From contig CAJXVM010000004.1 of the NCBI GenBank assembly GCA_913061095.1, positions 127,556-191,555 on the forward strand: a stretch of 64,000 nt of DNA, given 5' to 3'. Shown here piece after piece: positions 3,076 to 58,864 of this stretch (position 1 is the stretch's first letter; each line of letters begins with the position of its first letter). The notes under the pieces were generated by a model, which had not been told where the DNA came from, searched no databases, and saw only the letters and a list, made by a program, of their open reading frames with translations. The stretch is from an uncultured Ignavibacteria bacterium. Its GTDB lineage: Bacteria > Bacteroidota > Ignavibacteria > SZUA-365. Position numbers and translations under genes: made by a program.

Positions 3076-3148
3076 TGCACCCAACGGGATTCGAACCCGT
3101 GTTTTCAGCGTGAAAGGCTGACGACCTAGGCCTCTAGTCGATGGGTGC
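3076..3148 (-). tRNA. tRNA-Glu (anticodon UUC)
   Basis: The minus-strand sequence GCACCCATCGACTAGAGGCCTAGGTCGTCAGCCTTTCACGCTGAAAACACGGGTTCGAATCCCGTTGGGTGCA has a 7-bp acceptor stem and an anticodon loop CTTTCAC (UUC). It is near-identical in D- and T-arms to E. coli tRNA-Glu. CCA is not encoded. Confidence 0.9.
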
Positions 3149-41474: not shown

Positions 41475-41548
41475 GGTGAGCGTAGCTCAGTTGGTAGAGC
41501 ATCAGATTGTGGCTCTGAGGGTCGCGGGTTCAAGCCCCGTCGCTCACC
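41475..41548 (+). tRNA. tRNA-His (anticodon GUG) with encoded G-1
   Basis: GGTGAGCGTAGCTCAGTTGGTAGAGCATCAGATTGTGGCTCTGAGGGTCGCGGGTTCAAGCCCCGTCGCTCACC. The anticodon stem is TCAGA/TCTGA with loop TTGTGGC. The extra 5' G is characteristic of tRNA-His. Confidence 0.9.
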
Positions 41549-46978: not shown

Positions 46979-48070
46979 TCACCGGGTAAACAGATCTTCC
47001 TGCAGTTCTTCATCGACCATGCGGTAAATGCCGTGCTCGAGTGTGACGGCGAACACGCGCACGGGGTAGCCGGGCGCGATGAGTACACGCATGACATCCG
47101 TGGTTGGAAGACCGTCGTTGATCTCTGTCCATGTGTTCCCGCCGTCAATCGATCGATGCACACCGCTGTGGATGGCCGAGAGGTAGATGATATCCTCGTT
47201 CCAGGGATGAATCGCGATCTCGGAGATCTCTTCGATGGCGTTGACCTGAGCCCATGTGAGGCCCGCGTTTGTGGACACGTACAGTCCCGCGCCATGCCCG
47301 GTGATCCCCGCATATACGACATCCGGATTCGAGGGAGAGAACGCCAGACAGCGCGCGCCGGTGAACTTGTCGCGATTGATGCCCTCCTGTGCCGGCTTCC
47401 AGGTATCTCCGGCATCATTCGACCGCAGAAGCGCCGTAATCGACGAGGCGCCGGCAAGCATAGTCCACGGCCGATCCGGATGGCTTGCCACACACTGGAT
47501 CCCGAGATCCGGCAGCTTCTGATTCCAGGTGCGACCGTCATCACGGCTGACGAAAATGCCATGGGCCCATCCGAGCCCGCAGACCAGCGCCGCATTGATT
47601 CCGTTCGTACGGAGAATATGAAGAATGCCCCCGGATGTCCAGTTGTTCGGCGTGTCGATGATGTCCCAGCTTTCGCCGGCATTCGTGCTGAGAAAGAGGT
47701 TCTTCACACTCTTTCGCCCGCTGAAGCCCGCGTACAGCCTGCTGCGGTCGGCGGGATCAATGCACAGCGCCGTGACGCGTTCTCTGCGGTAGGATTCCGG
47801 GATGCCGGTGTTGTGGAGAATCCAGTTGAAACCGCCGTCGACGGATTTGTACAGACGGCCGAAATCCGTGCCGCAGTACATGGTCAGCGAATCGGCGGGA
47901 TCGATGGCGATGGTGTACACGAGCGTGTGCTGCAGCCCGCGGTTCATGGGCTCCCAGGCGGATGTCTGCGCTCGAAGTCCGGAGGCGGTGAACAGCGCGG
48001 AATCCGCGAGCAGCACGACGGCTGCGATGATAATGATGACGGTGAATCGACGCATGTTGCTCCTCCTCAC
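46979..48070 (-). CDS. Secreted BNR/sortilin-like (Ycf48-like) beta-propeller repeat protein
   Basis: The signal peptide and repeated S/TxDxGxTW motifs (SVDGGFNW, STNAGESW, SRDDGRTW, SNDAGDTW, STNAGLTW, SIDGGNTW). Confidence 0.65.
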   Translation of the reverse strand: MRRSNMRRFTVIIIIAAVVLLADSALFTASGLRAQTSAWEPMNRGLQHTLVYTIAIDPADSLTMYCGTDFGRLYKSVDGGFNWILHNTGIPESYRRERVTALCIDPADRSRLYAGFSGRKSVKNLFLSTNAGESWDIIDTPNNWTSGGILHILRTNGINAALVCGLGWAHGIFVSRDDGRTWNQKLPDLGIQCVASHPDRPWTMLAGASSITALLRSNDAGDTWKPAQEGINRDKFTGARCLAFSPSNPDVVYAGITGHGAGLYVSTNAGLTWAQVNAIEEISEIAIHPWNEDIIYLSAIHSGVHRSIDGGNTWTEINDGLPTTDVMRVLIAPGYPVRVFAVTLEHGIYRMVDEELQEDLFTR

Positions 48071-50157
48071 TTCAGCAGTGTCATGGTGATGCTGCGCTGC
48101 AGTCCCCCGCGGGTCAGCACGCAGAAATACGTTCCCGACGGCAGCGCGATGCCGGCATCGTCCCGGCCGTCCCAGACGAGACTGTGCGTGCCGGGCGCGT
48201 AGTCACGGTCCGCCAGTGTGCGCACCAGCCGTCCCAGCGCATCGTAAATGCAGATGCGCACACGGGAATCACCGCTGCTGCGCGACGGAATGAAAAAGCG
48301 GATCGTGGTCGCGGGATTGAAGGGATTCGGGTAATTCTGCTCCAGCTCCAGGTCACGCGCCGCGGCGATCTCGCCGACGGCGTTCGCGTCCCCCGGATCC
48401 ACTTCCCGGTACGCGATGAACGCGGTGAACGGCGTCAGCAGATTGTACTTTTCACTCAGCCGGATTACCGCCTCGCGGATCTCCGTCGAATCCTCCACGT
48501 CGCGCAGGCGCACGAGCAGCTGATCAATGCGCTTCGATGCCCACAGCCGTGCGACCTGCACGAGCTCTGTCGTGTCTTCCCGCAGCAGCAGAGGACGCGT
48601 GGCGCGGTGACGGACCGAAAATCCCTGCGGGCGGTAGGAGAACGTGCAGGAATCCCGCACCGGGGACAGAAACCGTCCCGTTCCAGTCATGGCGGCCGGA
48701 TTCGTCACGAGCAGCGATGTGGCAGGAAAGATGTCGGCAACGCCGGCGGGGTATTCCAGCAGCGCATCCTGCACGAGCGTGTTCTCGAAGCTAAACGTCG
48801 TGCGGCGCAGCGCGTCGTCGAAATCCATCCCCTGTTCGAGCGCGCAGAGCCGGCCTCCCGTCATGCCCGCGAGATCATGCAGCAGTTCAAGGCGCTCGGT
48901 GAATATCGTGATGGGATAGAAACACACCGTGTGCGTTCCCACGCGCAGATGCGCCGCCAGCTCGCCTGCATCGGTTGCACCACGGTTCGGGAGTCCGTCG
49001 GTGATGAAAATGCAGCGCTTGTTCGCCTCCGGCCGCAGGGCGAGCCGGCCGATCGCTTTGAGCACGGCCTCGTAATCGGTGATGCCGCGCGGGGTGTATT
49101 TCAGCTGTAGAAATGTTGATGCGGTCATCCGCGCGGTGATGTTCGCGAATATCATTCCGGTGTCGGACGGAAAATGCAGGATGTCGCCGTTGAACAGAAG
49201 AATATGGCAGCGGTCGCTCGGCAGCAGGCGCGCCATGATGTTGGCCATTGCGGTCATGACCATCCCCTGGCGCAGTCCGGTCATGCTGCCCGACGCGTCG
49301 ATCGCAAAAATGAAATCGGTTTTGACATCCTGCGATACGTCGATCGTGTCCGGAAACCAGAGCATGAAAAAACTGCTGTCCGATGTCCCCGTCTCGGTAT
49401 GCGTCAGCACGAACAGTGAATCGCTCCATCCTTCCAGCGCGAAGGTCAGCGCGAAATCCTCCTCGATGAGCAGGTTCTCATGCTCGAGATCCAGCAGCTG
49501 CCGTCGGTCGCTGACATCGGTCCGGCTGAGCATCGTCGGACGATCGTCGAAGTTCGTCTTGCTCGACGTGATCGGTGCGTCCATCGCCAGCTCGACGCGC
49601 AGGGCGATGCGCTGCAGGGGGGCGGACTGGTAGCCGCTCATGTTCAGCGGATAGGTATACCGTAGCGTTCCTTCACGGTTCACCGGCAGCTCGTGGAAAT
49701 ATTCGATCTCGATGCGCCGCTCTTCGCCGGGACGAATGGGAAAAATGCGCAGCTGGAAACGGTTCGCGCTCATGGTTTCGAGGATGGCGGGATCGCCGAC
49801 GCCCTCTTGTTTGAGGGAGTCGTAGATCTGCTTCGCCTCCTCGAGCCGCTTGACCACGAAGCGGATACGCTCGCCGTCGACCCACATCCACAGGCCGTCC
49901 GCCCGCGCACCGTCGGGAAGCTCGAACACGTAGAATCCCTCCAGTTCATACGGGTGATCGTTGCGGAAGGTCTCGTCGACATGCGTCACGGCGAGGCGGT
50001 TGCGGATGATGACGTGAGAACGGACCTCCTGCTGCACGAGATTGTAGATGGGAGACGCCGTGCCGAGTTCGCGTGCGAAGAGCTTTCCGGCCTCCGCGGT
50101 TGCGCCCGCCGCGAGGAACAGGGTGAGCAGGATCAGAACGGAACGGATCATTTTCAT
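48067..50157 (-). CDS. VIT + von Willebrand factor A (MIDAS DASGSM) protein with T9SS C-terminal sorting domain
   Basis: The internal start MKMIRSVLILLTLFLAAGATAEA is preceded by GGAG. The N-terminal VIT-like region, the VWA DxSxS motif and the LEQNYPNPFNPATTIRFFIP...TLLK CTD are all present. A 4-bp overlap with the downstream BNR gene is noted. Confidence 0.7.
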   Translation of the reverse strand: MKMIRSVLILLTLFLAAGATAEAGKLFARELGTASPIYNLVQQEVRSHVIIRNRLAVTHVDETFRNDHPYELEGFYVFELPDGARADGLWMWVDGERIRFVVKRLEEAKQIYDSLKQEGVGDPAILETMSANRFQLRIFPIRPGEERRIEIEYFHELPVNREGTLRYTYPLNMSGYQSAPLQRIALRVELAMDAPITSSKTNFDDRPTMLSRTDVSDRRQLLDLEHENLLIEEDFALTFALEGWSDSLFVLTHTETGTSDSSFFMLWFPDTIDVSQDVKTDFIFAIDASGSMTGLRQGMVMTAMANIMARLLPSDRCHILLFNGDILHFPSDTGMIFANITARMTASTFLQLKYTPRGITDYEAVLKAIGRLALRPEANKRCIFITDGLPNRGATDAGELAAHLRVGTHTVCFYPITIFTERLELLHDLAGMTGGRLCALEQGMDFDDALRRTTFSFENTLVQDALLEYPAGVADIFPATSLLVTNPAAMTGTGRFLSPVRDSCTFSYRPQGFSVRHRATRPLLLREDTTELVQVARLWASKRIDQLLVRLRDVEDSTEIREAVIRLSEKYNLLTPFTAFIAYREVDPGDANAVGEIAAARDLELEQNYPNPFNPATTIRFFIPSRSSGDSRVRICIYDALGRLVRTLADRDYAPGTHSLVWDGRDDAGIALPSGTYFCVLTRGGLQRSITMTLLK

Positions 50158-50274
50158 CGTCGGTACTCCGCAGGATGGAACAGACATCATGATGACACGG
50201 CAATGTGGTGATCGTTCCCCCGACGGTTCTCCTTCGCTCTGTCTCGCATCCATCGGAGTATTTCATCTGCAATC

Positions 50275-51609
50275 GTGATGTTCTATATTCCGGCAGACAT
50301 CCTGAACCGATTCGCTTTCGTCATGCATCCGTTCCTCCTCTTCATTTCTGCCCCGCCGGCCGATTCGCTCCCCGTGCTCTTTCAGAAAGCCGCCGTCAGT
50401 CTGCTGGTCGGCGCGCTTGTCGGACTCGAACGCGAGCGCTCGCAGGATGAGCATCTGCGACTCTTCGCCGGCATCCGCACATTTCCGCTGATCGGTCTGC
50501 TCGGTTTCCTCGCCGCCCTGCTCGGTGCCGCATTCACGACGTGGATGCTCGGCATCGTCGCCGCCGGATTCATCGCCCTCGTGATCACCTCGTACTACCT
50601 CGAAGCGCGCGAAGGATCACACGGCGCGACCAGCGAAGTGGCCGCGGTGATCGTGTTCATTCTCGGCGCGCTGATCTACCGGGACTACTACGTCGTGGCC
50701 ATCGCCGCGAGCGTCGTGCTCACACTTTTTCTCTCGCTCAAGCAGCCGCTGCAGAACCTGATCGCGCATGTCCATGAGGAGGATATCTACGCGACACTCA
50801 AGTTCGCCATCATCACGGCCATCGTCCTGCCCGTACTGCCCGACACCACCATCGGTCCGCTCGACGTCCTCAATCCCCGCCAGGTCTGGTACATGGTCGT
50901 TCTCATCGCCGGCATCAGCTTCGCCGGCTACGTGCTCGTGAAGGTGTTCGGCTCGAAAAAGGGGCTCTCGCTGACGGGCATGATGGGCGGACTCGTTTCC
51001 AGCACCGCCGTCACGCTGTCATTCTCCCAGAAGAGCCGCGAGGCGCCGGAGCTCGGGAAAACCTTCGCCTCCGCCATCGTGCTTGCCTGCACCATCATGT
51101 ACCCGCGCATCCTGATCGAGATCGCAGTGGTTAACCGCTCGCTGCTCGCGCACATGTGGGTACTGATCGTCATCCTCACTGCGAGCGGACTCGCGGCCAC
51201 GGCGCTGCTGCTGTTCGGGAAACGCAAACAGACCACCGGCGAAGTGAAGCTCAAGAATCCCTTCGAACTGATGTCGGCCATTAAATTCGGTCTGATATTT
51301 GCCGTGATTCTCTTTGTCTCGAAAGCCGCCCAGCAGTACCTCGGCAGCGGCGGTGTGTACCTCGCGGCGGGATTGGCGGGACTGACAGATGTGGACGCCA
51401 TCACGCTGTCGATGGCTAATCTCGCGAAAGAATCCCTCAGTGAGGATACCGCCGCCATCGCCATTCTGATCGCCGTGGTCACCAACACCATTGTCAAGGC
51501 GGGAATCGCCTTTGTTCTCGGCGCCTCGGCTCTGCGCCGCTATACCCTGCCCGGCTTCGGACTCGTCGTCGTCACCGGACTCATCCTGATCGGCTGGATG
51601 CTGCTTTGA
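50275..51609 (+). CDS. MgtC/SapB + DUF4010 family integral membrane protein
   Basis: Polytopic, with the MgtC-like N-terminal region AAVSLLVGALVGLERE. An alternative start is at 50323. Confidence 0.65.
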   Translation: MMFYIPADILNRFAFVMHPFLLFISAPPADSLPVLFQKAAVSLLVGALVGLERERSQDEHLRLFAGIRTFPLIGLLGFLAALLGAAFTTWMLGIVAAGFIALVITSYYLEAREGSHGATSEVAAVIVFILGALIYRDYYVVAIAASVVLTLFLSLKQPLQNLIAHVHEEDIYATLKFAIITAIVLPVLPDTTIGPLDVLNPRQVWYMVVLIAGISFAGYVLVKVFGSKKGLSLTGMMGGLVSSTAVTLSFSQKSREAPELGKTFASAIVLACTIMYPRILIEIAVVNRSLLAHMWVLIVILTASGLAATALLLFGKRKQTTGEVKLKNPFELMSAIKFGLIFAVILFVSKAAQQYLGSGGVYLAAGLAGLTDVDAITLSMANLAKESLSEDTAAIAILIAVVTNTIVKAGIAFVLGASALRRYTLPGFGLVVVTGLILIGWMLL

Positions 51610-51833: not shown

Positions 51834-51953
51834 GGATGCCGGGCTGCGGGGATGCCGGGCTGCGGGGATGCCGGGCTGCGGGGATGCCGGGCTGCGGGGA
51901 TGCCGGGCTGCGGGGATGCCGGGATACCGGGATACAGGGATGCCGGGCTGCAG
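51834..51953. repeat. Tandem array of 16-bp unit GGATGCCGGGCTGCGG (5 perfect + ~2 degenerate copies), intergenic
   Basis: Read directly. The unit length is not a multiple of 3. It lies immediately 3' of the CHAD-domain gene stop (51958). Confidence 0.8.
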
Positions 51954-51957
51954 ACCC

Positions 51958-53628
51958 TCAGGCACGGAGCAGCGACTGCAGGAGGCGTCTGCGGAAGTCG
52001 CTGCCGGTGAACACCGCCCAGGTGCCGCCGAAGGATGTCAGCAGCGTGTGCTTGCGTGACTGCCGTTCGGCCAGGTAGGTGAGAAGGGGGGCGGTGTTGA
52101 GGCGCTCGGAGAGCGGGCGCGCGGACTGTCGGATATCGAGTTCATGCGTGAACGCGGTGATGAGCTCCATCGCCGTCTGGTCGTCCTGCAGGTTGCCGAG
52201 ATAGTCCTGCGCGTCGGTCACCTGCTTGATGACTTTCTTCGCCTGCGGACCGAGGATATCGACGAGAAACTCCATCGTGTAGCGCAGTTTCTTGAACTGG
52301 ATGCGCAGCTGATGCAGCTGGTCGAGCGTAGCAGTGTCGAGCTCCGCATCGAAGGCGAGCACGTCTGTGAAACGCTCGATGACAAGCACCGGAGCGATCT
52401 GGCCGATTTTCTTGGGGACGCCCTCGATGACCGCCGGCTCGGGCGCGGCGTTTCCATCCTCCGAAGCAAGGAAGTGCTCGAAGGCTGCGCAGAAGGACGT
52501 GTAGCTGTCCGACCGCAGGAACTCCCGCAGGGCGGCGAGATCCTTCTGCCGTTGCGCCTCCCACTCCTGGATCAGTGTCTCGAATGCCGGAGCGTCCTCT
52601 GCGGAGAGTCCGTCCGCGTACTCCCGCATATGCATGATAAGCACGTCGAGATCGCGCACGCGGCCGAGCACCCTCCCGACGCGCTTGAGGGATTTCCGAT
52701 GCGGTTTCGCTTTCTTGGGGATGAACGCCTGCGAGAACACGTCGAACGCGGAGCGCATCCGCCGGGTGGCGACGCGCATCTTGTGCACGACCTCGGGATC
52801 CTCGCCGAGCATGCCGCTCTCACCGTGCCGCAGCATTTCCTCGAAATGCATGCGGAGAACCTTACGTGCCGCCGTGTTGTAACTGTCCGAGGGCAGGAGT
52901 CCGGGGGATTTCTTCTTCGCGGATTTCGCTGCTTTTTTCCCACCGTCCGGTTTCCCGCCGTCCGGTTTCCCGCCGTCCGGTTTCCCGCCGTCCGGTTTCC
53001 CGCTTCTGCGGACATTCTCCCCGCCATCGGAGTCCTGACCGGATCGGACATCCTGCCCGCCGTCGGCATCCTTCCCACTGCCGGCGGTTTCCTGCCGCCC
53101 GCGCTCTCCGCGCTGCCGGAGGTCGAAGATGCGCATCCCATCCCGTTCGAACGCCTTGCGCCAGAAGCGGGTGCGGCTTTCCGACAGGCCGATTTCGCGG
53201 GCGATTTGGTTGGTGCTTTTTCCCGAGGAGTACGACAGGATCAGATGCACCCGTTTCTGCAGGTCCTCGCCGACATCGCCGTCGAGCATGCTGCGCAGCC
53301 GTGCCGCGTCGTCATCGCTGAGCAGGTGCGCCGGGTCGGGGCCGGATGCAGTGCTCTCGCGCGGTGCGCGCCGCTCGGGAGTGAAATCCTCCGAGAACAT
53401 GTCCATCCCGTGCCGCTCGAACACCTTGCGCCAGAAGCGGGTGCGGCTTTCCGAGAGTCCGACCGCGCGGGCGATGTCGCGCGTCTGCGCGCCGTCGGCG
53501 TACTGCAGCAGGATGCCGGCATTGCGCCGTGCCTCGTCGGTCGATGACGGATCCTCGATGATCCGTTGCAGGTGGATTCTCTGTTCGTCGTTCAGCTTCA
53601 TGGTGCCATCCCGCGCTGGTGTTCGCAA
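51958..53628 (-). CDS. Duplicated IS630-like HTH + (KPDGG)4 linker + CHAD-domain protein
   Basis: The HTH unit is TRDIARAVGLSESRTRFWRKVFERHGM, repeated as TNQIAREIGLSESRTRFWRKAFERDGM. The KPDGG x4 linker is low-complexity. The C-terminal ~300 aa carries the CHAD signature VVHKMRVATRRMRSAFDVF and conserved His/Arg. An alternative start is at 53601. Confidence 0.65.
   Translation of the reverse strand: MRTPARDGTMKLNDEQRIHLQRIIEDPSSTDEARRNAGILLQYADGAQTRDIARAVGLSESRTRFWRKVFERHGMDMFSEDFTPERRAPRESTASGPDPAHLLSDDDAARLRSMLDGDVGEDLQKRVHLILSYSSGKSTNQIAREIGLSESRTRFWRKAFERDGMRIFDLRQRGERGRQETAGSGKDADGGQDVRSGQDSDGGENVRRSGKPDGGKPDGGKPDGGKPDGGKKAAKSAKKKSPGLLPSDSYNTAARKVLRMHFEEMLRHGESGMLGEDPEVVHKMRVATRRMRSAFDVFSQAFIPKKAKPHRKSLKRVGRVLGRVRDLDVLIMHMREYADGLSAEDAPAFETLIQEWEAQRQKDLAALREFLRSDSYTSFCAAFEHFLASEDGNAAPEPAVIEGVPKKIGQIAPVLVIERFTDVLAFDAELDTATLDQLHQLRIQFKKLRYTMEFLVDILGPQAKKVIKQVTDAQDYLGNLQDDQTAMELITAFTHELDIRQSARPLSERLNTAPLLTYLAERQSRKHTLLTSFGGTWAVFTGSDFRRRLLQSLLRA
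52944..53003 (-). repeat. In-frame 15-bp tandem repeat x4 (CGTCCGGTTTCCCGC) encoding KPDGG x4
   Basis: Read directly. It lies inside CDS 51958..53628. Confidence 0.85.
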
Positions 53629-53707
53629 CGATTTCCGGCATTCGGAAGAATTCTATGTATAAAGAAAACGGCGGTGTAAATCAATCGTCTTTGCCGAGGA
53701 CGCAATT

Positions 53708-55108
53708 GTGCATACATTGAATCGATGCAGTACATTGCAATTACAGGACCAGAACCGGAGGTTACGATTGGTGCGATTGTTCATCCACGCCATGCTCCTG
53801 CTGACACTGTCGGGAGGCATGCTGATGGCTGAGTCCGGAGAGAACGGCGTGTTTCCTTACGCATACACGGTGGAAACGCTCGAAAACGGACTGACGGTCA
53901 TCATGATTCCGATGTCGGGAAGCGGATTGATGTCCTACTACAGCATCGTCCGCACCGGATCCCGCGATGAGTTCGAGGCCGGAAAGACAGGCTTCGCCCA
54001 CTTCTTTGAACACATGATGTTTCGCGGCACGAAGAATTATCCCGCCGCGATGTACGACCGCATGGTGACCGAGATGGGTGCCGATGCGAACGCCTACACA
54101 ACGGACGACTACACGGCCTACCACCTGTCGTTCGCCGCGGAGGATCTCGAGACCGTTGTGAAGCTCGAAAGCGACCGCTTTCAGAACCTCGACTACGAGG
54201 AGGCGGCCTTTCAGACAGAGGCCGGCGCGGTGTATGGCGAGTACCGCAAGAACATCAGCAATCCCTGGCAGGTGCTGTTCGAAGCGCTGCTCGGGAAGGC
54301 TTTCACGCGGCACACGTACGGACATACCACCATCGGCTTCGAGGATGACATCAAGGCCATGCCGCAGCTCTATGAATACAGCAAAGAGTTTTTCTCGCGT
54401 TACTATCGTCCCGACAACACCGTGCTGCTGCTCGCCGGCAATTTCAGGGAAGCCGACGCGATGGAGCTCATCCGCCGCCATTATGGCGACTGGGAGGCCG
54501 GTTATCAGATGCCGGATGTACTCGCGGAGCCCGCGCAGACCGAAGAGCGCAGTGTGGATGTGACCTACGAGGGAAAGACGCTCCCCCTGCTTGTCGTGTC
54601 GTACAAGGGTCCCGCCCTCGACGTCGGGGATCCGGTCATGGTCGCCGGCTCGATGCTCGAGGAGCTGCTCTTCGGCGAGACAAGCGACATTTACCGCACG
54701 CTCGTGCTCAAGGAGCAGAAAGTGCAGTTCATCAGCGCGGATTTCGGCTTCAACCGCGATCCGCGGCTATGGAGCATTTACGCGATGATCAAGGACGAGG
54801 CTGACATCGCATCGGTGCGCACGGAGATCGACCGCACTATCGCACAGTTCCGCAGCAGGACGGTCAGCGACCGGCAGCTCGCTGACCTGAAGAAGCGGCT
54901 GAAGTACAGCTTCCTCATGGGACTTGACACGCCAGACAAGGTCGCGGGGCGGTTGGCCCGGCTGACCGCGATCACCGGCGGCATCGACGTCGTCGATCGG
55001 CTGTACGTGGCGTACGACGCCGTGACGCCGGATGACCTCCGCGCTGCGGTCGAGCGCTATCTCGCCGACGAGCGGCGTACCATCGCAACACTGAAGGGGA
55101 GGGAGTGA
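53708..55108 (+). CDS. M16 family zinc peptidase (pitrilysin-like, active HxxEH subunit)
   Basis: HFFEHMMFRGT inverzincin motif and a signal peptide. Confidence 0.8.
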   Translation: MHTLNRCSTLQLQDQNRRLRLVRLFIHAMLLLTLSGGMLMAESGENGVFPYAYTVETLENGLTVIMIPMSGSGLMSYYSIVRTGSRDEFEAGKTGFAHFFEHMMFRGTKNYPAAMYDRMVTEMGADANAYTTDDYTAYHLSFAAEDLETVVKLESDRFQNLDYEEAAFQTEAGAVYGEYRKNISNPWQVLFEALLGKAFTRHTYGHTTIGFEDDIKAMPQLYEYSKEFFSRYYRPDNTVLLLAGNFREADAMELIRRHYGDWEAGYQMPDVLAEPAQTEERSVDVTYEGKTLPLLVVSYKGPALDVGDPVMVAGSMLEELLFGETSDIYRTLVLKEQKVQFISADFGFNRDPRLWSIYAMIKDEADIASVRTEIDRTIAQFRSRTVSDRQLADLKKRLKYSFLMGLDTPDKVAGRLARLTAITGGIDVVDRLYVAYDAVTPDDLRAAVERYLADERRTIATLKGRE

Positions 55109-56604
55109 TCATGACACGACTTCGTTCCATCATCATCCTTGCCGGCATGCTCATGAGCGCCTGTTCTCCTCCTCCATCCGAAAACGTCGTTCTCCTTCCC
55201 GTCGCAGACGATCCGACCATCAGCTTCCGTGTCTGGTTCAAAGTCGGCTCCCAGTGCGATCCGGCGGGCAAGGAAGGACTGGCCGCGCTGACCGCCGCGA
55301 TGATGACCGAGGGCGCGACCGAGGCACGCTCCTACGAGACCATTCTCGCGGAGCTGTACCCCATCGCGGCCTCGTATGGCGCCAGTGTGGACAAGGAGAT
55401 GACGATCATCAGCGGCCGCATCCACCGCGACAATCTCGATCCCTACTACGAGCTCTTCACCGATGCCATCCTGCATCCCGCTTTCGCGGAGGAGGACTTC
55501 GAACGCATCCGTACCGACATGATCAACAGTATCCGCAAGTCGCTCCGCTACGCAAACGACGAGGAGCTCGGCAAGGCGGTGCTCTACGACTTCATTTACG
55601 AAGGCACGCCGTACGGTCATCTCGACATGGGCACCGTCAGCAGTCTCGAGAATATTACGCTAGACGACGTGCGCAGCTTCTACCGCGCCTGGTTTACCGG
55701 GCAAAACCTGATCGTCGGACTTGGCGGCGGTTACCATGATACGCTTGTCTTCAATATCCAGGAGGACCTCGCGGCCCTGCCGGCCAGCGAGCCCACGCAG
55801 CCCCCGCCGCCGGAGCCCGCATCGTTCGAGGGACTGCACATGCGCATTGTCGAGAAGGACTGCAATGCCACGGCGATCAGTTTCGGATTTCCGATTGACG
55901 TGCTGCGCGGTGACGAGGATTTCTGGGCGCTGGCGCTGTTCAACTCATGGTTCGGCGAGCATCGCAACTCTTCGTCGCATCTCTACCAGGTGATCCGCGA
56001 GGCGCGGGGCATGAATTACGGCGATTACTCCTATATCGAGATATTCCCCAACGGCGGACGCCGCCAGATGCCGCCCACGAATCACGCCCGCCGGCAGCAG
56101 CTCTTCGAGGTATGGATTCGTCCCGTCCAGCACGCGCATCGCCACTTCGCGCTGCGCGCCGCGATCCGCGAGCTGCAGCAGGTGATCGAGAACGGCATGA
56201 CGGAGGAGCAGTTCGAGCTCACGCAGCGTTTTCTCGGCAAATACGCGCTGCATTACGCGACGACGACATCGCGGCGACTCGGGTATGCCATCGACAGCAA
56301 GTTCTACGGCATGCATGGCGAGTATGTCGAGCTGTTCCGCCGCGAGATCGCGAACCTCACGCTGGAGGAAGTCAACGCGGCGATTCGCAGGCATCTGCAG
56401 TTCAGCAACATCAGGATCGCGGCGGTGACATCAGGCGCGGAGGAATTCAAGCGCGATCTCATTGCGGATGTTCCGAGTCCGATCACGTACGAGACTCCCA
56501 AGCCGGAGGAGGTGCTCGAGGAAGACAGGGCGATCATGGCATATCCGCTGAACTTTACCGAAGACAGGATCACCATCATCCCCGTGGAGGATGTATTTGA
56601 TTGA
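55105..56604 (+). CDS. M16 family peptidase, second (non-HxxEH) subunit-like lipoprotein
   Basis: Lipobox LMSAC. It is homologous to M16 but lacks HxxEH. A 4-bp overlap with the upstream M16 gene is noted. Confidence 0.7.
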   Translation: MIMTRLRSIIILAGMLMSACSPPPSENVVLLPVADDPTISFRVWFKVGSQCDPAGKEGLAALTAAMMTEGATEARSYETILAELYPIAASYGASVDKEMTIISGRIHRDNLDPYYELFTDAILHPAFAEEDFERIRTDMINSIRKSLRYANDEELGKAVLYDFIYEGTPYGHLDMGTVSSLENITLDDVRSFYRAWFTGQNLIVGLGGGYHDTLVFNIQEDLAALPASEPTQPPPPEPASFEGLHMRIVEKDCNATAISFGFPIDVLRGDEDFWALALFNSWFGEHRNSSSHLYQVIREARGMNYGDYSYIEIFPNGGRRQMPPTNHARRQQLFEVWIRPVQHAHRHFALRAAIRELQQVIENGMTEEQFELTQRFLGKYALHYATTTSRRLGYAIDSKFYGMHGEYVELFRREIANLTLEEVNAAIRRHLQFSNIRIAAVTSGAEEFKRDLIADVPSPITYETPKPEEVLEEDRAIMAYPLNFTEDRITIIPVEDVFD

Positions 56605-58864
56605 ACGCATCGACACGCTGCGGGATCTGCAGCTGCCGGCTCATGCGGTGATCATCGCCGACCGGCAGCTCCCGCAGGAGTATCTCTCCCGCTTCCACGA
56701 TCCCATTCTCGTGGATGCGGGGGAATCGCTCAAGACGCTCGCGGCCGTCGAGGATCTCGCTGTCGCGGTGCTCAAGCGTCGGTCGAGCAAGCCGTTGACC
56801 CTGGTCGCATTTGGGGGAGGCAGCATCGGCGACGCGGTGGGGTTTCTCGCGAGCATTCTCTGGCGCGGGGTCGCGCTCTGGCATGTGCCGACAACGCTTC
56901 TGGCCATGGTCGATTCCGCGCACGGCGGCAAGACCGCCGTGAACCTCGGTGTCGCCAAGAATCAGCTGGGCACGTTTTATCCCGCGGAAAAAGTAGTATT
57001 CGTCTGGGAATTCCTGGCCACGCTGCCGGTGCATCAGCGGCGCGACGGCGTCGTGGAGCTTCTCAAAACCCTGTGGCTCGGCGATGCGGCCGGCAGCCGC
57101 GCCCTGCAGGCGCGCGACGTGGAAACGCTCGCGTTCGCACCGTTTGACGAGATCGCCCCGGCATTGACGCAGATGATCGATGCGGCCGTGCGCATCAAGC
57201 AGAATATTGTACACGAGGATCCACGCGAAGAGAAGGGCCTGCGCACAGTGCTGAATCTCGGGCATACGATCGGTCATGCGCTGGAACTGATTACGGGCCT
57301 CGGGCACGGAGCCGCGGTGGCCTGGGGCATGGCATCTTCGCTGGTCTTTTCCGAACGTGAAGGGATGGATGCGCCGGCGCTGCGGCACTGCCGTGAAACG
57401 CTGGCACCGCTTCTCGTACCGTTCGGCGCGATGCCCGCACGGGAGGTGCTGCGCGGCGCGATGGCACGCGATAAAAAGCGCAGTGACGATCAGCTGCGCT
57501 CCGTCGTTCTTCATGCGTTCGGCGCGCCGCATGTGCACGCCGACATCAGCGCCGATCAATGGATCGGAGCACTCGAGCAGGCCTACGACCATTTCTCCCG
57601 CTCACCGCTGCGGGTGCGTGTCGAACGCGAGCGTTCGGTGACGCTGGTCATCGACGCAAGCAAATCGGAGCTGAACCGGGCGCTGATCATCGCATCGCAG
57701 CGCATCGGTCGCACCTGCATCGTCGGGAAAAGTGAGGCGGAGGACGTCACGTTCATGCTGCGCGCCCTGCGTGGACTCGGGTATCCTGTCGAGGAGACGG
57801 CGAAGGGCTATGTGGTCGACAATCTCAACAGTGAACTCCAGCAGGATGAAGCAGGGGAGGGCCGGCGCATTTACGTGGGTGAGGGCGGCACGACACTGCG
57901 CTTCCTGCTGGCCCTGTGCGCAACGTCGGTGAAGCGCAGCAAAATCGTGGTCGCCCCTTCGCTGCTGCGCCGGCCGCATGAGCCGTTGCTCCGTGCCCTT
58001 CGCAGCGGAGGTGCGTCCATCGAACCCTTCGATGACCTTTCGGGACAGGGTTTCGTGCTGCGCGGCTGGGAGCGGATGCCGGAGGCATTCTCGGTTGAGA
58101 GTGACGCATCTTCGCAGTTCGCTTCGGCGATCGCGCTGCTGAGTGTCGGCGCGGAAGCGCCGTTCACCCTGCGCCTGCTCGGGGAGACCGTCAGTGAAAG
58201 CTATCTGCGCATGACGCTGTCGCTGCTGGAACTTGCCGGAGTTGAGCATATCCGGCACGAGGATTTGATTGCATTCAATCAGACGGAGCGCCTCAACGAA
58301 AAGCTGACGCTTGAGATGGAGCCTGATGCGAGTTCAGCCGCTGTATGGAGCGCAGCTCGTTTTCTCGGCCATCCCTGTGACCCCGGGAGAAAGGCGCGCG
58401 TGCCGCGTCAGCCCGACAGCGCCGTGGATCGCTTTCTTGCCCGGCTGCAGGAAGCGGATCGCGCGCCGCAGGACATCGATCTCTCCGAGGTGCCCGATCT
58501 GCTGCCCGTGCTGACCGTCGCCGCGCTGACGCGCAGGCATCCGGTCACCTTCACGGGGGTGTCGCATCTGCGGCACAAGGAGTCGAATCGTCTCGATGAT
58601 TTCGCGTCCTCTCTGCGTGATGTGGGCGCGAAGGTGGAAGCGAGTGCCGATGGACTGCAGGTGCGTCCCGGCACGGAGATCATGCCCGACACGCTGTTCT
58701 GTACACACGGGGATCATCGGCTGGTCATGGCCGCCGCACTGCTCGCATTTGCCGCCGCTGTTCCGTTGCGCATCGACTACGCCTGGAGCGTCAGCAAGTC
58801 CTATCCGCGTTTCTGGGACGATCTCCGCCGCGCTGGCTGGACGCTGCAGCTGCCGGAAGCCTGA
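56591..58864 (+). CDS. Bifunctional 3-dehydroquinate synthase / 3-phosphoshikimate 1-carboxyvinyltransferase (AroB-AroA fusion)
   Basis: The N-terminal part has FGGGSIGDAVGF, the GGK motif and NLGHTIGHALE (AroB). The C-terminal part has DASKSELNRALIIAS, GEGGTTLRFL and RHKESNRL (EPSP synthase). Confidence 0.8.
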   Translation: MYLIERIDTLRDLQLPAHAVIIADRQLPQEYLSRFHDPILVDAGESLKTLAAVEDLAVAVLKRRSSKPLTLVAFGGGSIGDAVGFLASILWRGVALWHVPTTLLAMVDSAHGGKTAVNLGVAKNQLGTFYPAEKVVFVWEFLATLPVHQRRDGVVELLKTLWLGDAAGSRALQARDVETLAFAPFDEIAPALTQMIDAAVRIKQNIVHEDPREEKGLRTVLNLGHTIGHALELITGLGHGAAVAWGMASSLVFSEREGMDAPALRHCRETLAPLLVPFGAMPAREVLRGAMARDKKRSDDQLRSVVLHAFGAPHVHADISADQWIGALEQAYDHFSRSPLRVRVERERSVTLVIDASKSELNRALIIASQRIGRTCIVGKSEAEDVTFMLRALRGLGYPVEETAKGYVVDNLNSELQQDEAGEGRRIYVGEGGTTLRFLLALCATSVKRSKIVVAPSLLRRPHEPLLRALRSGGASIEPFDDLSGQGFVLRGWERMPEAFSVESDASSQFASAIALLSVGAEAPFTLRLLGETVSESYLRMTLSLLELAGVEHIRHEDLIAFNQTERLNEKLTLEMEPDASSAAVWSAARFLGHPCDPGRKARVPRQPDSAVDRFLARLQEADRAPQDIDLSEVPDLLPVLTVAALTRRHPVTFTGVSHLRHKESNRLDDFASSLRDVGAKVEASADGLQVRPGTEIMPDTLFCTHGDHRLVMAAALLAFAAAVPLRIDYAWSVSKSYPRFWDDLRRAGWTLQLPEA

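Follow-up and report, generated by a model that had tools for sequence, protein, structure and literature searches.

A double helix-turn-helix CHAD protein from an uncultured Ignavibacteria bacterium as a candidate link between polyphosphate and DNA

INTRODUCTION

Polyphosphate (polyP) alters chromatin-like organization, and in many bacteria its granules are located within the nucleoid or on it. A protein that links these nucleoid-associated granules to DNA has been identified only in Pseudomonas, where it is AlgP, and CHAD proteins have been named as candidates (PMC13556221, PMC11894788). The function of phosins is described as unknown in the same recent papers (PMC13556221, PMC11894788). Known CHAD phosins include CtCHAD of C. 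tepidum (6QV7/6QVA/3E0S), PptA and PptB of R. eutropha, PptA of Streptomyces (6RN5), and the CYTH-CHAD protein YgiF of E. coli. In CtCHAD, the central polyP-contact residues (H253, R256, R260, R296, and R418/Y419) have been defined by mutagenesis, and the affinity of CHAD for polyP is in the nanomolar to micromolar range (PMC6537752). PhaF, a protein of polyhydroxyalkanoate (PHA) granules, has a double role as a granule-to-nucleoid tether and a regulator of transcription (PMC11894788).

Characterized CHAD proteins stand alone or are fused to CYTH, and none has a DNA-binding domain in the literature searched. In contrast, we describe here a gene whose product joins two helix-turn-helix (HTH) units to a CHAD domain, found in a 64-kb window of genomic DNA (the whole stretch that was analyzed). 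We suggest, with a probability of roughly 0.45, that this protein is a DNA-anchored phosin, through which polyP would be coupled to the chromosome in a manner analogous to PhaF or AlgP. As a natural fusion of a polyP-binding fold to modules of a DNA-binding type, it is a concrete candidate for the link between polyP and DNA.

RESULTS

An intact gene encodes two HTH units, a disordered linker, and a CHAD domain

The maximal open reading frame (ORF) reported in an initial annotation of this DNA was recovered at 51958-53628 on the minus strand, encoding 556 amino acids (aa) from a TTG at 53628 (ORF list), as was its layout of an HTH pair, a (KPDGG)4 linker, and a CHAD domain, each part of which was found by Pfam or TRF (Table 1). 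The ATG at 53601 is the likely start of the gene; in the alignment, the first residue of the orthologues is a Met equivalent to this codon, and a public protein (P0001) has the 547-aa form with 100% identity to the predicted product. Residue numbers below follow the 547-aa form unless noted. The gene is intact and conserved, and is present as 1 copy in the same chromosomal neighborhood in 8/8 orthologous loci.

Table 1. Features of the HTH-HTH-CHAD locus (window coordinates; residues in 547-aa numbering)
Feature	Coordinates	Strand	Remarks
HTH-HTH-CHAD CDS, most likely	51958..53601	-	547 aa + stop
HTH unit 1	53368..53601	-	residues 1-78; Pfam HTH_28/HTH_23
Short linker between HTH units	53317..53367	-	residues 79-95, predicted disordered
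HTH unit 2	53113..53316	-	residues 96-163; Pfam HTH_23/HTH_29/HTH_Tnp_1
Long disordered linker	52915..53112	-	residues 164-229, between HTH unit 2 and CHAD
(KPDGG)x4 repeat	52936-53003	-	15-bp tandem repeat, 4.5 copies (TRF)
CHAD domain	51961..52914	-	residues 230-547; Pfam core residues 248-481
Intergenic region shared with divergent M16 operon	53602..53770	.	gene calls; presumably both promoters
Divergent operon: M16 peptidase, M16 peptidase, AroB-AroA fusion	53708..58864	+	Pfam
MgtC/DUF4010 membrane protein gene, convergent	50275..51609	+	Pfam

In the AlphaFold model, pLDDT values are 31 to 57 along the long linker, falling below 50 for residues 163-224, and are also below 50 for residues 79-90 between the two HTH units, where the sequence is variable in the alignment. 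Besides the net-neutral KPDGG repeat, the long linker holds a short Lys-rich stretch, KKAAKSAKKK. Both its length and its sequence vary among orthologues, one of which (L082) has an unrelated 27-bp repeat. Conservation across the family does not extend to KPDGG, which, like the Lys-rich stretch, is short and lineage-specific.

The CHAD domain retains the central polyP contacts of CtCHAD

The CHAD domain proposed at the C terminus was confirmed by a Pfam match (PF05235) to ORF residues 257-490 (556-aa numbering) with an E value of 6.5e-53, a score of 180.5 bits against a gathering cut-off of 25.6, and coverage of model positions 2-227 of 228. The sequence of CtCHAD in the PDB was matched with an E value of 4e-23. 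The AlphaFold model has pLDDT values above 90 over residues 230-547, displays the two four-helix bundles, pseudo-twofold symmetry, and central cavity of the CHAD fold, and superposes on the polyP-bound C. tepidum CHAD. In Foldseek searches, it matched 6qv7, 6qva, and 3e0s with E values of about 1e-10 and target-normalized TM-scores of 0.85 to 0.90, and 6qv5 and 6rn5 with E values of about 1e-6.

In a pairwise HMMER map, CtCHAD residues H253/R256/R260/R296/R418/Y419 correspond to H273/R276/R280/R316/R440/Y441, and all six are invariant in 71/71 relatives. The conserved CHAD His and Arg positions, whose loss had been named at the outset as grounds for dropping the proposal, are intact. At the periphery, where basic patches of CHAD bind long polyP chains, the "front" patch residues R438 and K441 of CtCHAD map to K459 and T462 (basic in 37/71 relatives at each position), and the "back" patch R385/K386/K389/K390 maps to I/E/T/D (basic in 0-12 of 71 relatives). 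By this mapping, the pair of peripheral basic patches is not kept, and the back patch is not conserved. As judged from its homology to CtCHAD, the CHAD domain of the HTH-HTH-CHAD protein almost certainly binds polyP.

The crystallized CtCHAD segment itself (residues 208-522 of the 522-aa Q8KE09) was considered as a truncated double-HTH protein, a reading that was rejected as far as the closest relatives of the segment show. The closest Chlorobiaceae homologues of the segment (56% identity, 457-461 aa) have CHAD as their only Pfam domain and are without HTH, and their N termini look like degenerate CYTH-type regions. A search with the segment found no exact entry.

The HTH units are an ancient, conserved pair of transposase type

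HTH unit 1 is modeled with a pLDDT of about 97 as helices at residues 5-16, 22-35, 40-47, and 51-69, followed by a conserved tail, F-x-P-x-x-R-R; its invariant residues in the alignment are A28, Y34, G37, S50, S52, R53, R55, R58, G65, and F69. HTH unit 2, likewise confidently folded as four helices (pLDDT above 90), aligns as the counterpart of the lone HTH in the one-HTH (class B) members of the family; across 71 sequences, its G127 is invariant, and conservation reaches 90% or more at Y124, T130, S140, R145, W147, R148, and G155. The units exceed the Pfam cut-offs for HTH_28, HTH_23, HTH_Tnp_1, and HTH_29, and the best NCBIfam match is to positions 2-56 of 299 of an IS630 transposase model (38.2 bits), which bears out their description as IS630-like. 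They had also been called near-identical, which is wrong, since they share 45% identity (30/67); only their recognition-helix halves are close (81 nt, 85% DNA identity), with the identical stretch GLSESRTRFWRK. In an alignment with overall identities as low as 35%, 20 positions of the HTH pair are invariant. The two units come from an ancient duplication, after which both were kept.

One reading of this N-terminal region is that it is a decaying IS630-type transposase fragment, fused to CHAD by accident and without a function of its own. It draws on the best NCBIfam match being an IS630 transposase N terminus (38 bits) and on the JGI label "CHAD domain-containing protein/transposase" carried by relatives. 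That score lies well under the cut-off of 100, however, and covers about 55 of 299 model positions; Pfam scans found no DDE or other transposase catalytic family even at E values up to 1, a search for flanking inverted repeats found none, and there is no transposase neighbor within the window. No transposase gene adjoins the orthologous gene in 7/8 loci; the exception is the locus L088, where a small transposase ORF of the Y1 type lies at a distance of about 1.2 kb. Also against a remnant are the single copy in conserved synteny, the maintenance of both units since an ancient duplication, HTH residues that are invariant across phyla in the alignments, and the hundreds of homologues that share the layout. 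We give this reading a negligible probability; the conservation data effectively refute it, and the concern raised in the initial annotation that the HTH might be a pseudogenized transposase fragment does not apply.

The two HTH domains have net charges of 0 and +1 and are thus roughly neutral overall, which fits site-specific binding better than histone-like coating of the nucleoid. On its conserved surface, the third helix is rich in Arg and Lys (SRTRFWRK). The top-ranked fold analogues of the pair, all weak, are nearly all HTH domains that bind double-stranded DNA (dsDNA), and include the DUX4 double homeodomain-DNA complex, the DNA-binding domains of the Tc3 and Mos1 transposases, Cbp1, sigma region 4, and KorA. 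Neither the fold search of the pair against the PDB (all E values above 0.1) nor a profile search against it gave a significant match, whether to a solved DNA complex or to any other structure. DNA binding by the HTH units would follow from their homology to DNA-binding families.

Alternatively, the HTH modules might not bind DNA in vivo and might serve instead as extra modules for binding polyanions (polyP or RNA), for protein-protein contacts, or for oligomerization, making the protein an ordinary granule-surface phosin of higher avidity. The Arg/Lys-rich third helix is compatible with this, as are the failure to match any solved DNA complex and the company that the HTH keeps with polyP-processing domains; on many proteins, polyP is also in competition with nucleic acids (PMC11894788). 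On the other side, Pfam firmly places the unit in transposase- and homeodomain-like DNA-binding HTH families, and its best-ranked structural analogues nearly all bind dsDNA. In addition, CHAD already binds polyP at nanomolar to micromolar affinity (PMC6537752), which leaves little reason for keeping an invariant module as a further, weak polyP site. We consider this alternative improbable.

The fusion is widespread and recurs with polyP enzymes

A homologue search showed that the best 120 homologues all carry this HTH type and CHAD, 34 with two HTH units and 86 with one, and that homologues with the HTH-CHAD layout number in the hundreds. The architecture had been called novel; it is common in metagenomes, and what stands of that claim is that we found no description of the family in the literature searched. 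The family is widespread and is generically annotated in public sources, and no cultured host was found among the homologues listed. Poly-HTH array proteins with 4 to 31 units also exist; they show that the unit can serve as a scaffold of repeats, in keeping with a role other than DNA binding.

HTH-CHAD fusions occur in at least three phyla. The same HTH module is found in HTH-CHAD, HTH-PpxIII-CHAD, CYTH-HTH-CHAD, and CYTH-HTH-PpxIII-CHAD proteins of Chloroflexota and Actinomycetota. In a GTDB scan, 17/27 HTH-containing loci among the matches listed, which are without FCB-group genomes or C. tepidum, have PPK1, PPK2, or PPX within three genes; the 27 loci are mostly from Chloroflexota and Actinomycetota, and the linked genes are often co-directional. 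A polyP-linked function is strengthened because the same HTH recurs inside CYTH/PpxIII/CHAD proteins and in ppk/ppx clusters.

A conserved divergent operon fits a regulator as well as shared ancestry

In 8/8 double-HTH loci, with protein identities as low as 37%, the gene is divergent from the M16-M16-AroB/AroA operon, whose last gene encodes a fusion of DHQ synthase and EPSP synthase (Pfam), and an MgtC/DUF4010 gene is nearby in 7/8 orthologous loci. The operon is a possible regulatory target or merely conserved synteny. We found no ppk1, ppk2, or ppx in the 64-kb window or within ±6 to 8 kb of the seven other double-HTH loci, so the polyP link is not visible locally. No sigma-70-type promoter match was found in the shared intergenic region, and a search of the eight orthologous intergenic regions, a small sample, found no shared 6- to 8-mer beyond shuffle expectation.

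Immediately beyond the stop codon lies a perfect tandem array of 16-bp units, which was considered as a binding-site array for the protein and rejected; it is not a family feature, because it is absent from the orthologous loci and present once in the window.

These data bear on whether the protein is a polyP-responsive one-component transcription factor, in which the HTH pair would sit on an operator and polyP bound to CHAD, or sequestration to granules, would shift promoter occupancy; the operator could lie, for example, in the intergenic region with the M16-M16-AroB/AroA operon or near ppk/ppx in Chloroflexota. The protein does combine an HTH and a ligand-binding domain in one polypeptide, the one-component design, and its gene is divergent from the same operon in all eight double-HTH loci and lies inside polyP gene clusters in other phyla, as the genes of pathway-specific regulators often do. 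The near-neutral charge of the HTH domains is what would be expected of site-specific binders, and PhaF is a precedent for a granule tether that is also a transcription regulator (PMC11894788). Against this reading, the eight intergenic regions share no word beyond shuffle expectation, the double-HTH synteny could reflect shared ancestry alone, and in Chloroflexota the gene mostly runs in the same direction as ppk genes and hence is not divergent from ppk. In multidomain enzymes, the same HTH is flanked by catalytic CYTH on one side and PpxIII/CHAD on the other, an unusual placement if it belonged to a dedicated transcription factor, and the long, disordered, variable linker is poorly suited to allosteric coupling, although control by sequestration would still be workable. 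On balance, we regard a regulator as the main rival of the tether reading, rather unlikely in itself, if less so than HTH modules that do not bind DNA.

DISCUSSION

Our preferred reading is that the HTH-HTH-CHAD protein tethers polyP to DNA. The central cavity of the CHAD domain, which is basic, would clamp a polyP chain in the way seen in the crystal structure of the C. tepidum CHAD-polyP complex, and the two transposase-type HTH modules would bind dsDNA as a bipartite unit, probably making contact through their recognition helices (S-x-S-R-T-R-F/Y-W-R-K) and through the basic tail, F-x-P-x-R-R, that follows the first HTH. A disordered spacer of about 65 residues would leave the DNA-binding and polyP-binding activities independent, and polyP chains or granules would be coupled to the chromosome for their positioning, their inheritance, or local polyP delivery. 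We infer this outcome, along with the polyP binding and DNA binding behind it, from the homology of the modules. The proposal in the initial annotation, a polyP-linked DNA-binding protein acting as tether or regulator, is consistent with all of our findings, with both binding activities likewise read from homology.

The long, variable, and disordered linker is easier to reconcile with a tether than with a sensor that works by allosteric coupling. In addition, since the HTH travels with polyP-handling enzyme domains, a DNA-localizing module explains its distribution more simply than a transcription factor does. Several observations count against a tether: the HTH charge is near neutral, which also suits a regulator; the 8/8 divergent layout with the M16-M16-AroB/AroA operon is a classic regulator-target arrangement; and there are no local ppk1, ppk2, or ppx genes, the HTH fold matches have E values above 0.1, and the back patch of CtCHAD is not conserved.

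More broadly, and a little more tentatively than for the single protein, HTH-CHAD, CYTH-HTH-CHAD, and HTH-PpxIII-CHAD proteins may form a widespread, unrecognized class of dedicated polyP-to-chromosome adaptors that bring polyP granules or enzymes of polyP processing to specific sites on DNA. Such a class would be a folded-domain counterpart of AlgP and PhaF in the FCB group, Chloroflexota, and Actinomycetota, and its members might possibly also act as polyP-gated regulators. The HTH-CHAD fusion offers a ready-made two-headed (DNA and polyP) reagent for synthetic biology or imaging. If the protein were a regulator instead, a domain dedicated to sensing polyP would be found in a transcription factor for the first time.

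Among known systems, the N-terminal region resembles the bipartite DNA-binding domain at the N terminus of IS630/Tc1-mariner transposases, and also the Pax paired domain and the CENP-B N terminus, in having tandem bundles of the HTH_23/HTH_28/HTH_29 type with a basic connector. It is not a PAI/RED-like combination, because both units copy the first HTH type, and the protein differs from these transposases in lacking a DDE domain, terminal inverted repeats, and multicopy spread and in scoring below the family cut-off. Like one-component HTH regulators, it has an HTH and a ligand-binding domain in one chain and, in the double-HTH class, a conserved divergent operon; unlike them, it has a long disordered linker, no detected operator, and an HTH that also occurs inside multidomain polyP enzymes. 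To our knowledge, CHAD is not the sensor domain of any characterized regulator.

As in PhaF and PhaM of PHA granules and AlgP, which spaces polyP granules in P. aeruginosa, a granule module and a DNA module are connected by a flexible or disordered joint, here by homology of the modules. There is no sequence homology to these proteins, which reach DNA through disordered histone-H1-like repeats of the KPAA type, compared with two folded HTH domains here; in place of a histone-H1-like Lys/Ala/Pro repeat tail, the HTH-HTH-CHAD protein has only KKAAKSAKKK and KPDGG. The granule-binding module differs as well, being CHAD here and a phasin or coiled-coil domain in PhaF, PhaM, and AlgP. With the CHAD phosins, the protein shares its C-terminal 318 residues, a bona fide CHAD domain in which the six central polyP contacts are kept.

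Gene and domain layout

The coding sequence most likely begins at the ATG at 53601 rather than at the start of the 556-aa open reading frame, because this ATG is the start of the identical public protein P0001 (547 aa; contigs of up to 252 kb) and orthologues have their initial Met at the equivalent position. Pfam thresholds were passed by both HTH units and by CHAD, and the repeat encoding the (KPDGG)4 element was located, as the initial annotation had described. Its term "near-identical" for the HTH pair was an overstatement, since the units share 45% protein identity and are close only in their recognition-helix halves, where 81 nt have 85% DNA identity (53125-53205 versus 53395-53475) and the stretch GLSESRTRFWRK is identical in both. 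This likeness at the DNA level points to gene conversion acting locally or to constraint on the codons.

Features of the HTH-HTH-CHAD gene, its predicted protein, and the surrounding window (strand in parentheses; residues of the 547-aa form)
Feature	Location	Basis or remark
Open reading frame	51958-53628 (-)	556 aa
Coding sequence, most likely	51958-53601 (-)	547 aa
Two HTH units	N-terminal	Pfam, above thresholds of HTH_28, HTH_23, HTH_Tnp_1, HTH_29
(KPDGG)x4 element	52936-53003	15-bp tandem repeat
CHAD (complete)	C-terminal part	Pfam, E = 6.5e-53, 180.5 bits vs cutoff 25.6
Two four-helix HTH units	residues 1-70, 96-163	AlphaFold, pLDDT >90
Short disordered connector between HTH units	residues 79-90	AlphaFold model
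Long disordered linker with KPDGG repeat	residues 163-224	pLDDT about 31-57
All-helical C-terminal domain, confident	residues 230-547	AlphaFold model
16-bp minisatellite	51834-51951	perfect units x5.6; degenerate 8-bp units up to 51951
MgtC/DUF4010 gene	50275-51609 (+)	membrane protein
VIT + FlgD_ig protein	48067-50253 (-)	728 aa
AroB-AroA fusion	56591-58864 (+)	one 757-aa ORF, 3-dehydroquinate synthase + EPSP synthase
tRNA genes	3076-3148 (-), 41476-41548 (+)	sole Rfam matches at gathering threshold in window

The minisatellite, with unit GGATGCCGGGCTGCGG, lies between two convergent genes and starts 7 nt past the stop codon. It is found only here in the window (6 matches versus 0.12 expected) and, being absent from the orthologous loci, is specific to this genome and not a family feature; by eye, its plus strand has G3-4 tracts 4 to 5 nt apart, a G-quadruplex-type pattern. 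An unrelated 27-bp tandem repeat (x2.4) lies within the coding sequence of the orthologue P0012 (L082:8497-8560). Its placement on the linker is approximate, and it suggests that the linker may be a hotspot of repeat expansion across the lineage.

The HTH pair is conserved at a stable locus

The best NCBIfam match of the protein, at 38 bits against a cutoff of 100, is to the first ~55 positions of the IS630 transposase model. That the N-terminal part is a transposase remnant is nevertheless very improbable: Pfam finds no DDE domain in the protein, even at an E value of ≤1, no inverted repeats flank the gene, and the gene holds the same position in eight of eight loci (proteins 37 to 100% identical), divergent from an operon of two M16 peptidase genes and the AroB-AroA fusion. 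In addition, the HTH pair has 20 positions that do not vary across 21 sequences of 35 to 78% overall identity. Across species, HTH1-HTH1 and HTH2-HTH2 identities (53% and 51%) exceed that of HTH1-HTH2 (45%), from which we infer that the duplication predates this lineage and that both copies have been maintained. Three defining features of the IS630 transposase family were tested and none was found, so we rejected membership in it.

The neighbors of the gene in the window are housekeeping genes. In each of the eight double-HTH loci, the AroB-AroA fusion is the last gene of the M16-M16 operon, and an MgtC/DUF4010 gene is nearby in seven of them; in two loci (L083 and L086) a response regulator gene (Response_reg + GerE) lies between the latter and the HTH-HTH-CHAD gene. 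The VIT + FlgD_ig protein ends in a tail, …NYPNPFNPATTIRF…, that resembles the secretion sorting domains of the FCB group, in keeping with the Bacteroidota/Ignavibacteria-type labels that the closest homologues bear.

The CHAD domain retains the polyP-cavity residues

An AlphaFold model built from a 71-sequence alignment had a mean pLDDT of 86. Its C-terminal domain matched the Chlorobium tepidum CHAD (CtCHAD) structures 6qv7, 6qva, and 3e0s, which include a polyP complex (E about 1e-10, target-normalized TM 0.85 to 0.90), and also Ricinus CHAD and Streptomyces PptA. An origin of CtCHAD in a double-HTH protein was considered and rejected on the basis of its closest Chlorobiaceae homologues, for which Pfam gives CHAD alone. 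Mutagenesis showed that the CtCHAD polyP cavity is lined by H253, R256, R260, R296, and R418/Y419 (Lorenzo-Orts et al., PMC6537752). In a pairwise HMMER map these correspond to H273, R276, R280, R316, R440, and Y441. None of the six varies among the 71 family members, so the His/Arg positions on which the CHAD assignment had been made to depend are kept. The peripheral "front" residues are conserved in part only, and by the same map the "back" patch is not conserved among family members.

The evidence that the HTH pair binds DNA is indirect. Pfam places the units in transposase/homeodomain-like HTH families; their third helix carries an invariant S-x-S-R-x-R-x-W-R motif, and a conserved basic F-x-P-x-R-R tail follows HTH1. 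Fold searches with the units returned nothing significant (all E > 0.1), and no solved structure is related to the pair by sequence. The top-ranked analogues at this level are nearly all double-stranded-DNA-binding HTH domains, among them the DUX4 double homeodomain-DNA complex, the Tc3 and Mos1 transposase DNA-binding domains, the CRISPR-repeat-binding protein Cbp1, sigma region 4, and KorA. A role of the HTH other than DNA binding seems to us improbable. The net charges of the domains are 0 and +1, a near neutrality more in keeping with site-specific binding than with a histone-like coating role.

HTH-CHAD proteins form a modular family

The architecture had been taken as novel, but a whole family shares it: in all 120 best homologues an HTH of this type accompanies CHAD. 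Two HTH units are present in 34 (about 500 aa; FCB-group metagenome-assembled genomes labeled Bacteroidota or Ignavibacteria) and one in 86 (about 430 to 460 aa, or about 620 to 725 aa with an inserted region), the lone unit aligning with HTH2. A scan of GTDB species representatives gave at least 575 confirmed relatives of the CHAD part; the 80 loci retained from the matches listed are almost all from Chloroflexota and Actinomycetota. Using a custom HTH-unit HMM and Pfam, we found the HTH module in these loci as HTH-CHAD, HTH-PpxGppA_III-CHAD, CYTH-HTH-CHAD, and CYTH-HTH-PpxGppA_III-CHAD. In the CYTH-bearing forms (e.g., L007:9362-11260, L012:8462-11032, and L038:9242-11563, from Chloroflexota and Actinomycetota) the HTH sits between polyP-handling domains, often with ppk1 or ppk2 adjoining, and CYTH+HTH_23+CHAD was seen independently in precomputed Pfam annotations of further clusters. 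An HTH-less PpxIII-CHAD form was Pfam confirmed in locus L004, and some HTH-less CHAD proteins whose N-terminal region is long resemble the classical CYTH-CHAD type.

Neighbor-gene clustering followed by Pfam identified PPK1 in 29, PPK2 in 21, and PPX in 14 of 78 loci, and one of these lies within three genes, often codirectionally, in 17 of the 27 GTDB-scan loci with an HTH-bearing CHAD gene. No polyP genes were found within 6 to 8 kb on either side in the double-HTH loci or in the 64-kb window.

An HTH-pair profile gave 784 matches at E ≤ 1e-3 (109 at E ≤ 1e-10) among 1.84 billion representative proteins; in addition to CHAD fusions, the matches include proteins consisting solely of 4 to 31 tandem HTH units. 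For P0242, P0244, and P0250, Pfam gives only HTH-type domains (as many as 9 HTH_23 stretches within 801 aa), and the profile finds 16 stretches in P0248 (1,391 aa) and 31 in P0266 (3,045 aa); these five proteins appear to be poly-HTH arrays, built mainly from tandem HTH_23/28/29 units.

A possible DNA-anchored phosin

Our favored reading, to which we give a probability of about 45%, is that the protein is a DNA-anchored phosin. CHAD would hold polyP and the HTH pair DNA, and the flexible spacer of about 65 residues would let both be held simultaneously, so that polyP chains or granules would be coupled to the chromosome. This reading is favored by the long, variable, disordered linker, by the repeated placement of the HTH between catalytic polyP domains, where a localization module is simpler than a transcription factor, and by the literature. 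PolyP granules are nucleoid associated, a protein linking them to the nucleoid is known only in Pseudomonas (AlgP), PhaF is the linker of PHA granules, and CHAD proteins have been named as candidate granule-nucleoid linkers (PMC13556221; PMC11894788).

The main alternative, a polyP-responsive regulator, we consider somewhat unlikely: the divergent M16-M16-AroB/AroA operon in eight of eight loci and the near-neutral HTH charge speak for it, but the eight orthologous intergenic regions share no conserved word and the HTH occurs inside multidomain enzyme architectures. Anchoring and regulation are compatible, since PhaF does both.

Comparison with known systems

We found no description of an HTH-CHAD protein in the literature searched, including key CHAD papers, and no cultured host among the matches listed. 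Public databases name these proteins "CHAD domain-containing protein," at times with "/transposase" or "/transposase-like protein." Thus, the domains are known and the combination is already in sequence databases, but it appears to be unstudied; it bears directly on the question of what links polyP to the nucleoid. By sequence, fold, and cavity residues the protein belongs to the CHAD/phosin family and, lacking the three defining features, not to the IS630 transposases, and it may work like PhaF/PhaM/AlgP-type tethers, by analogy and without homology to them.
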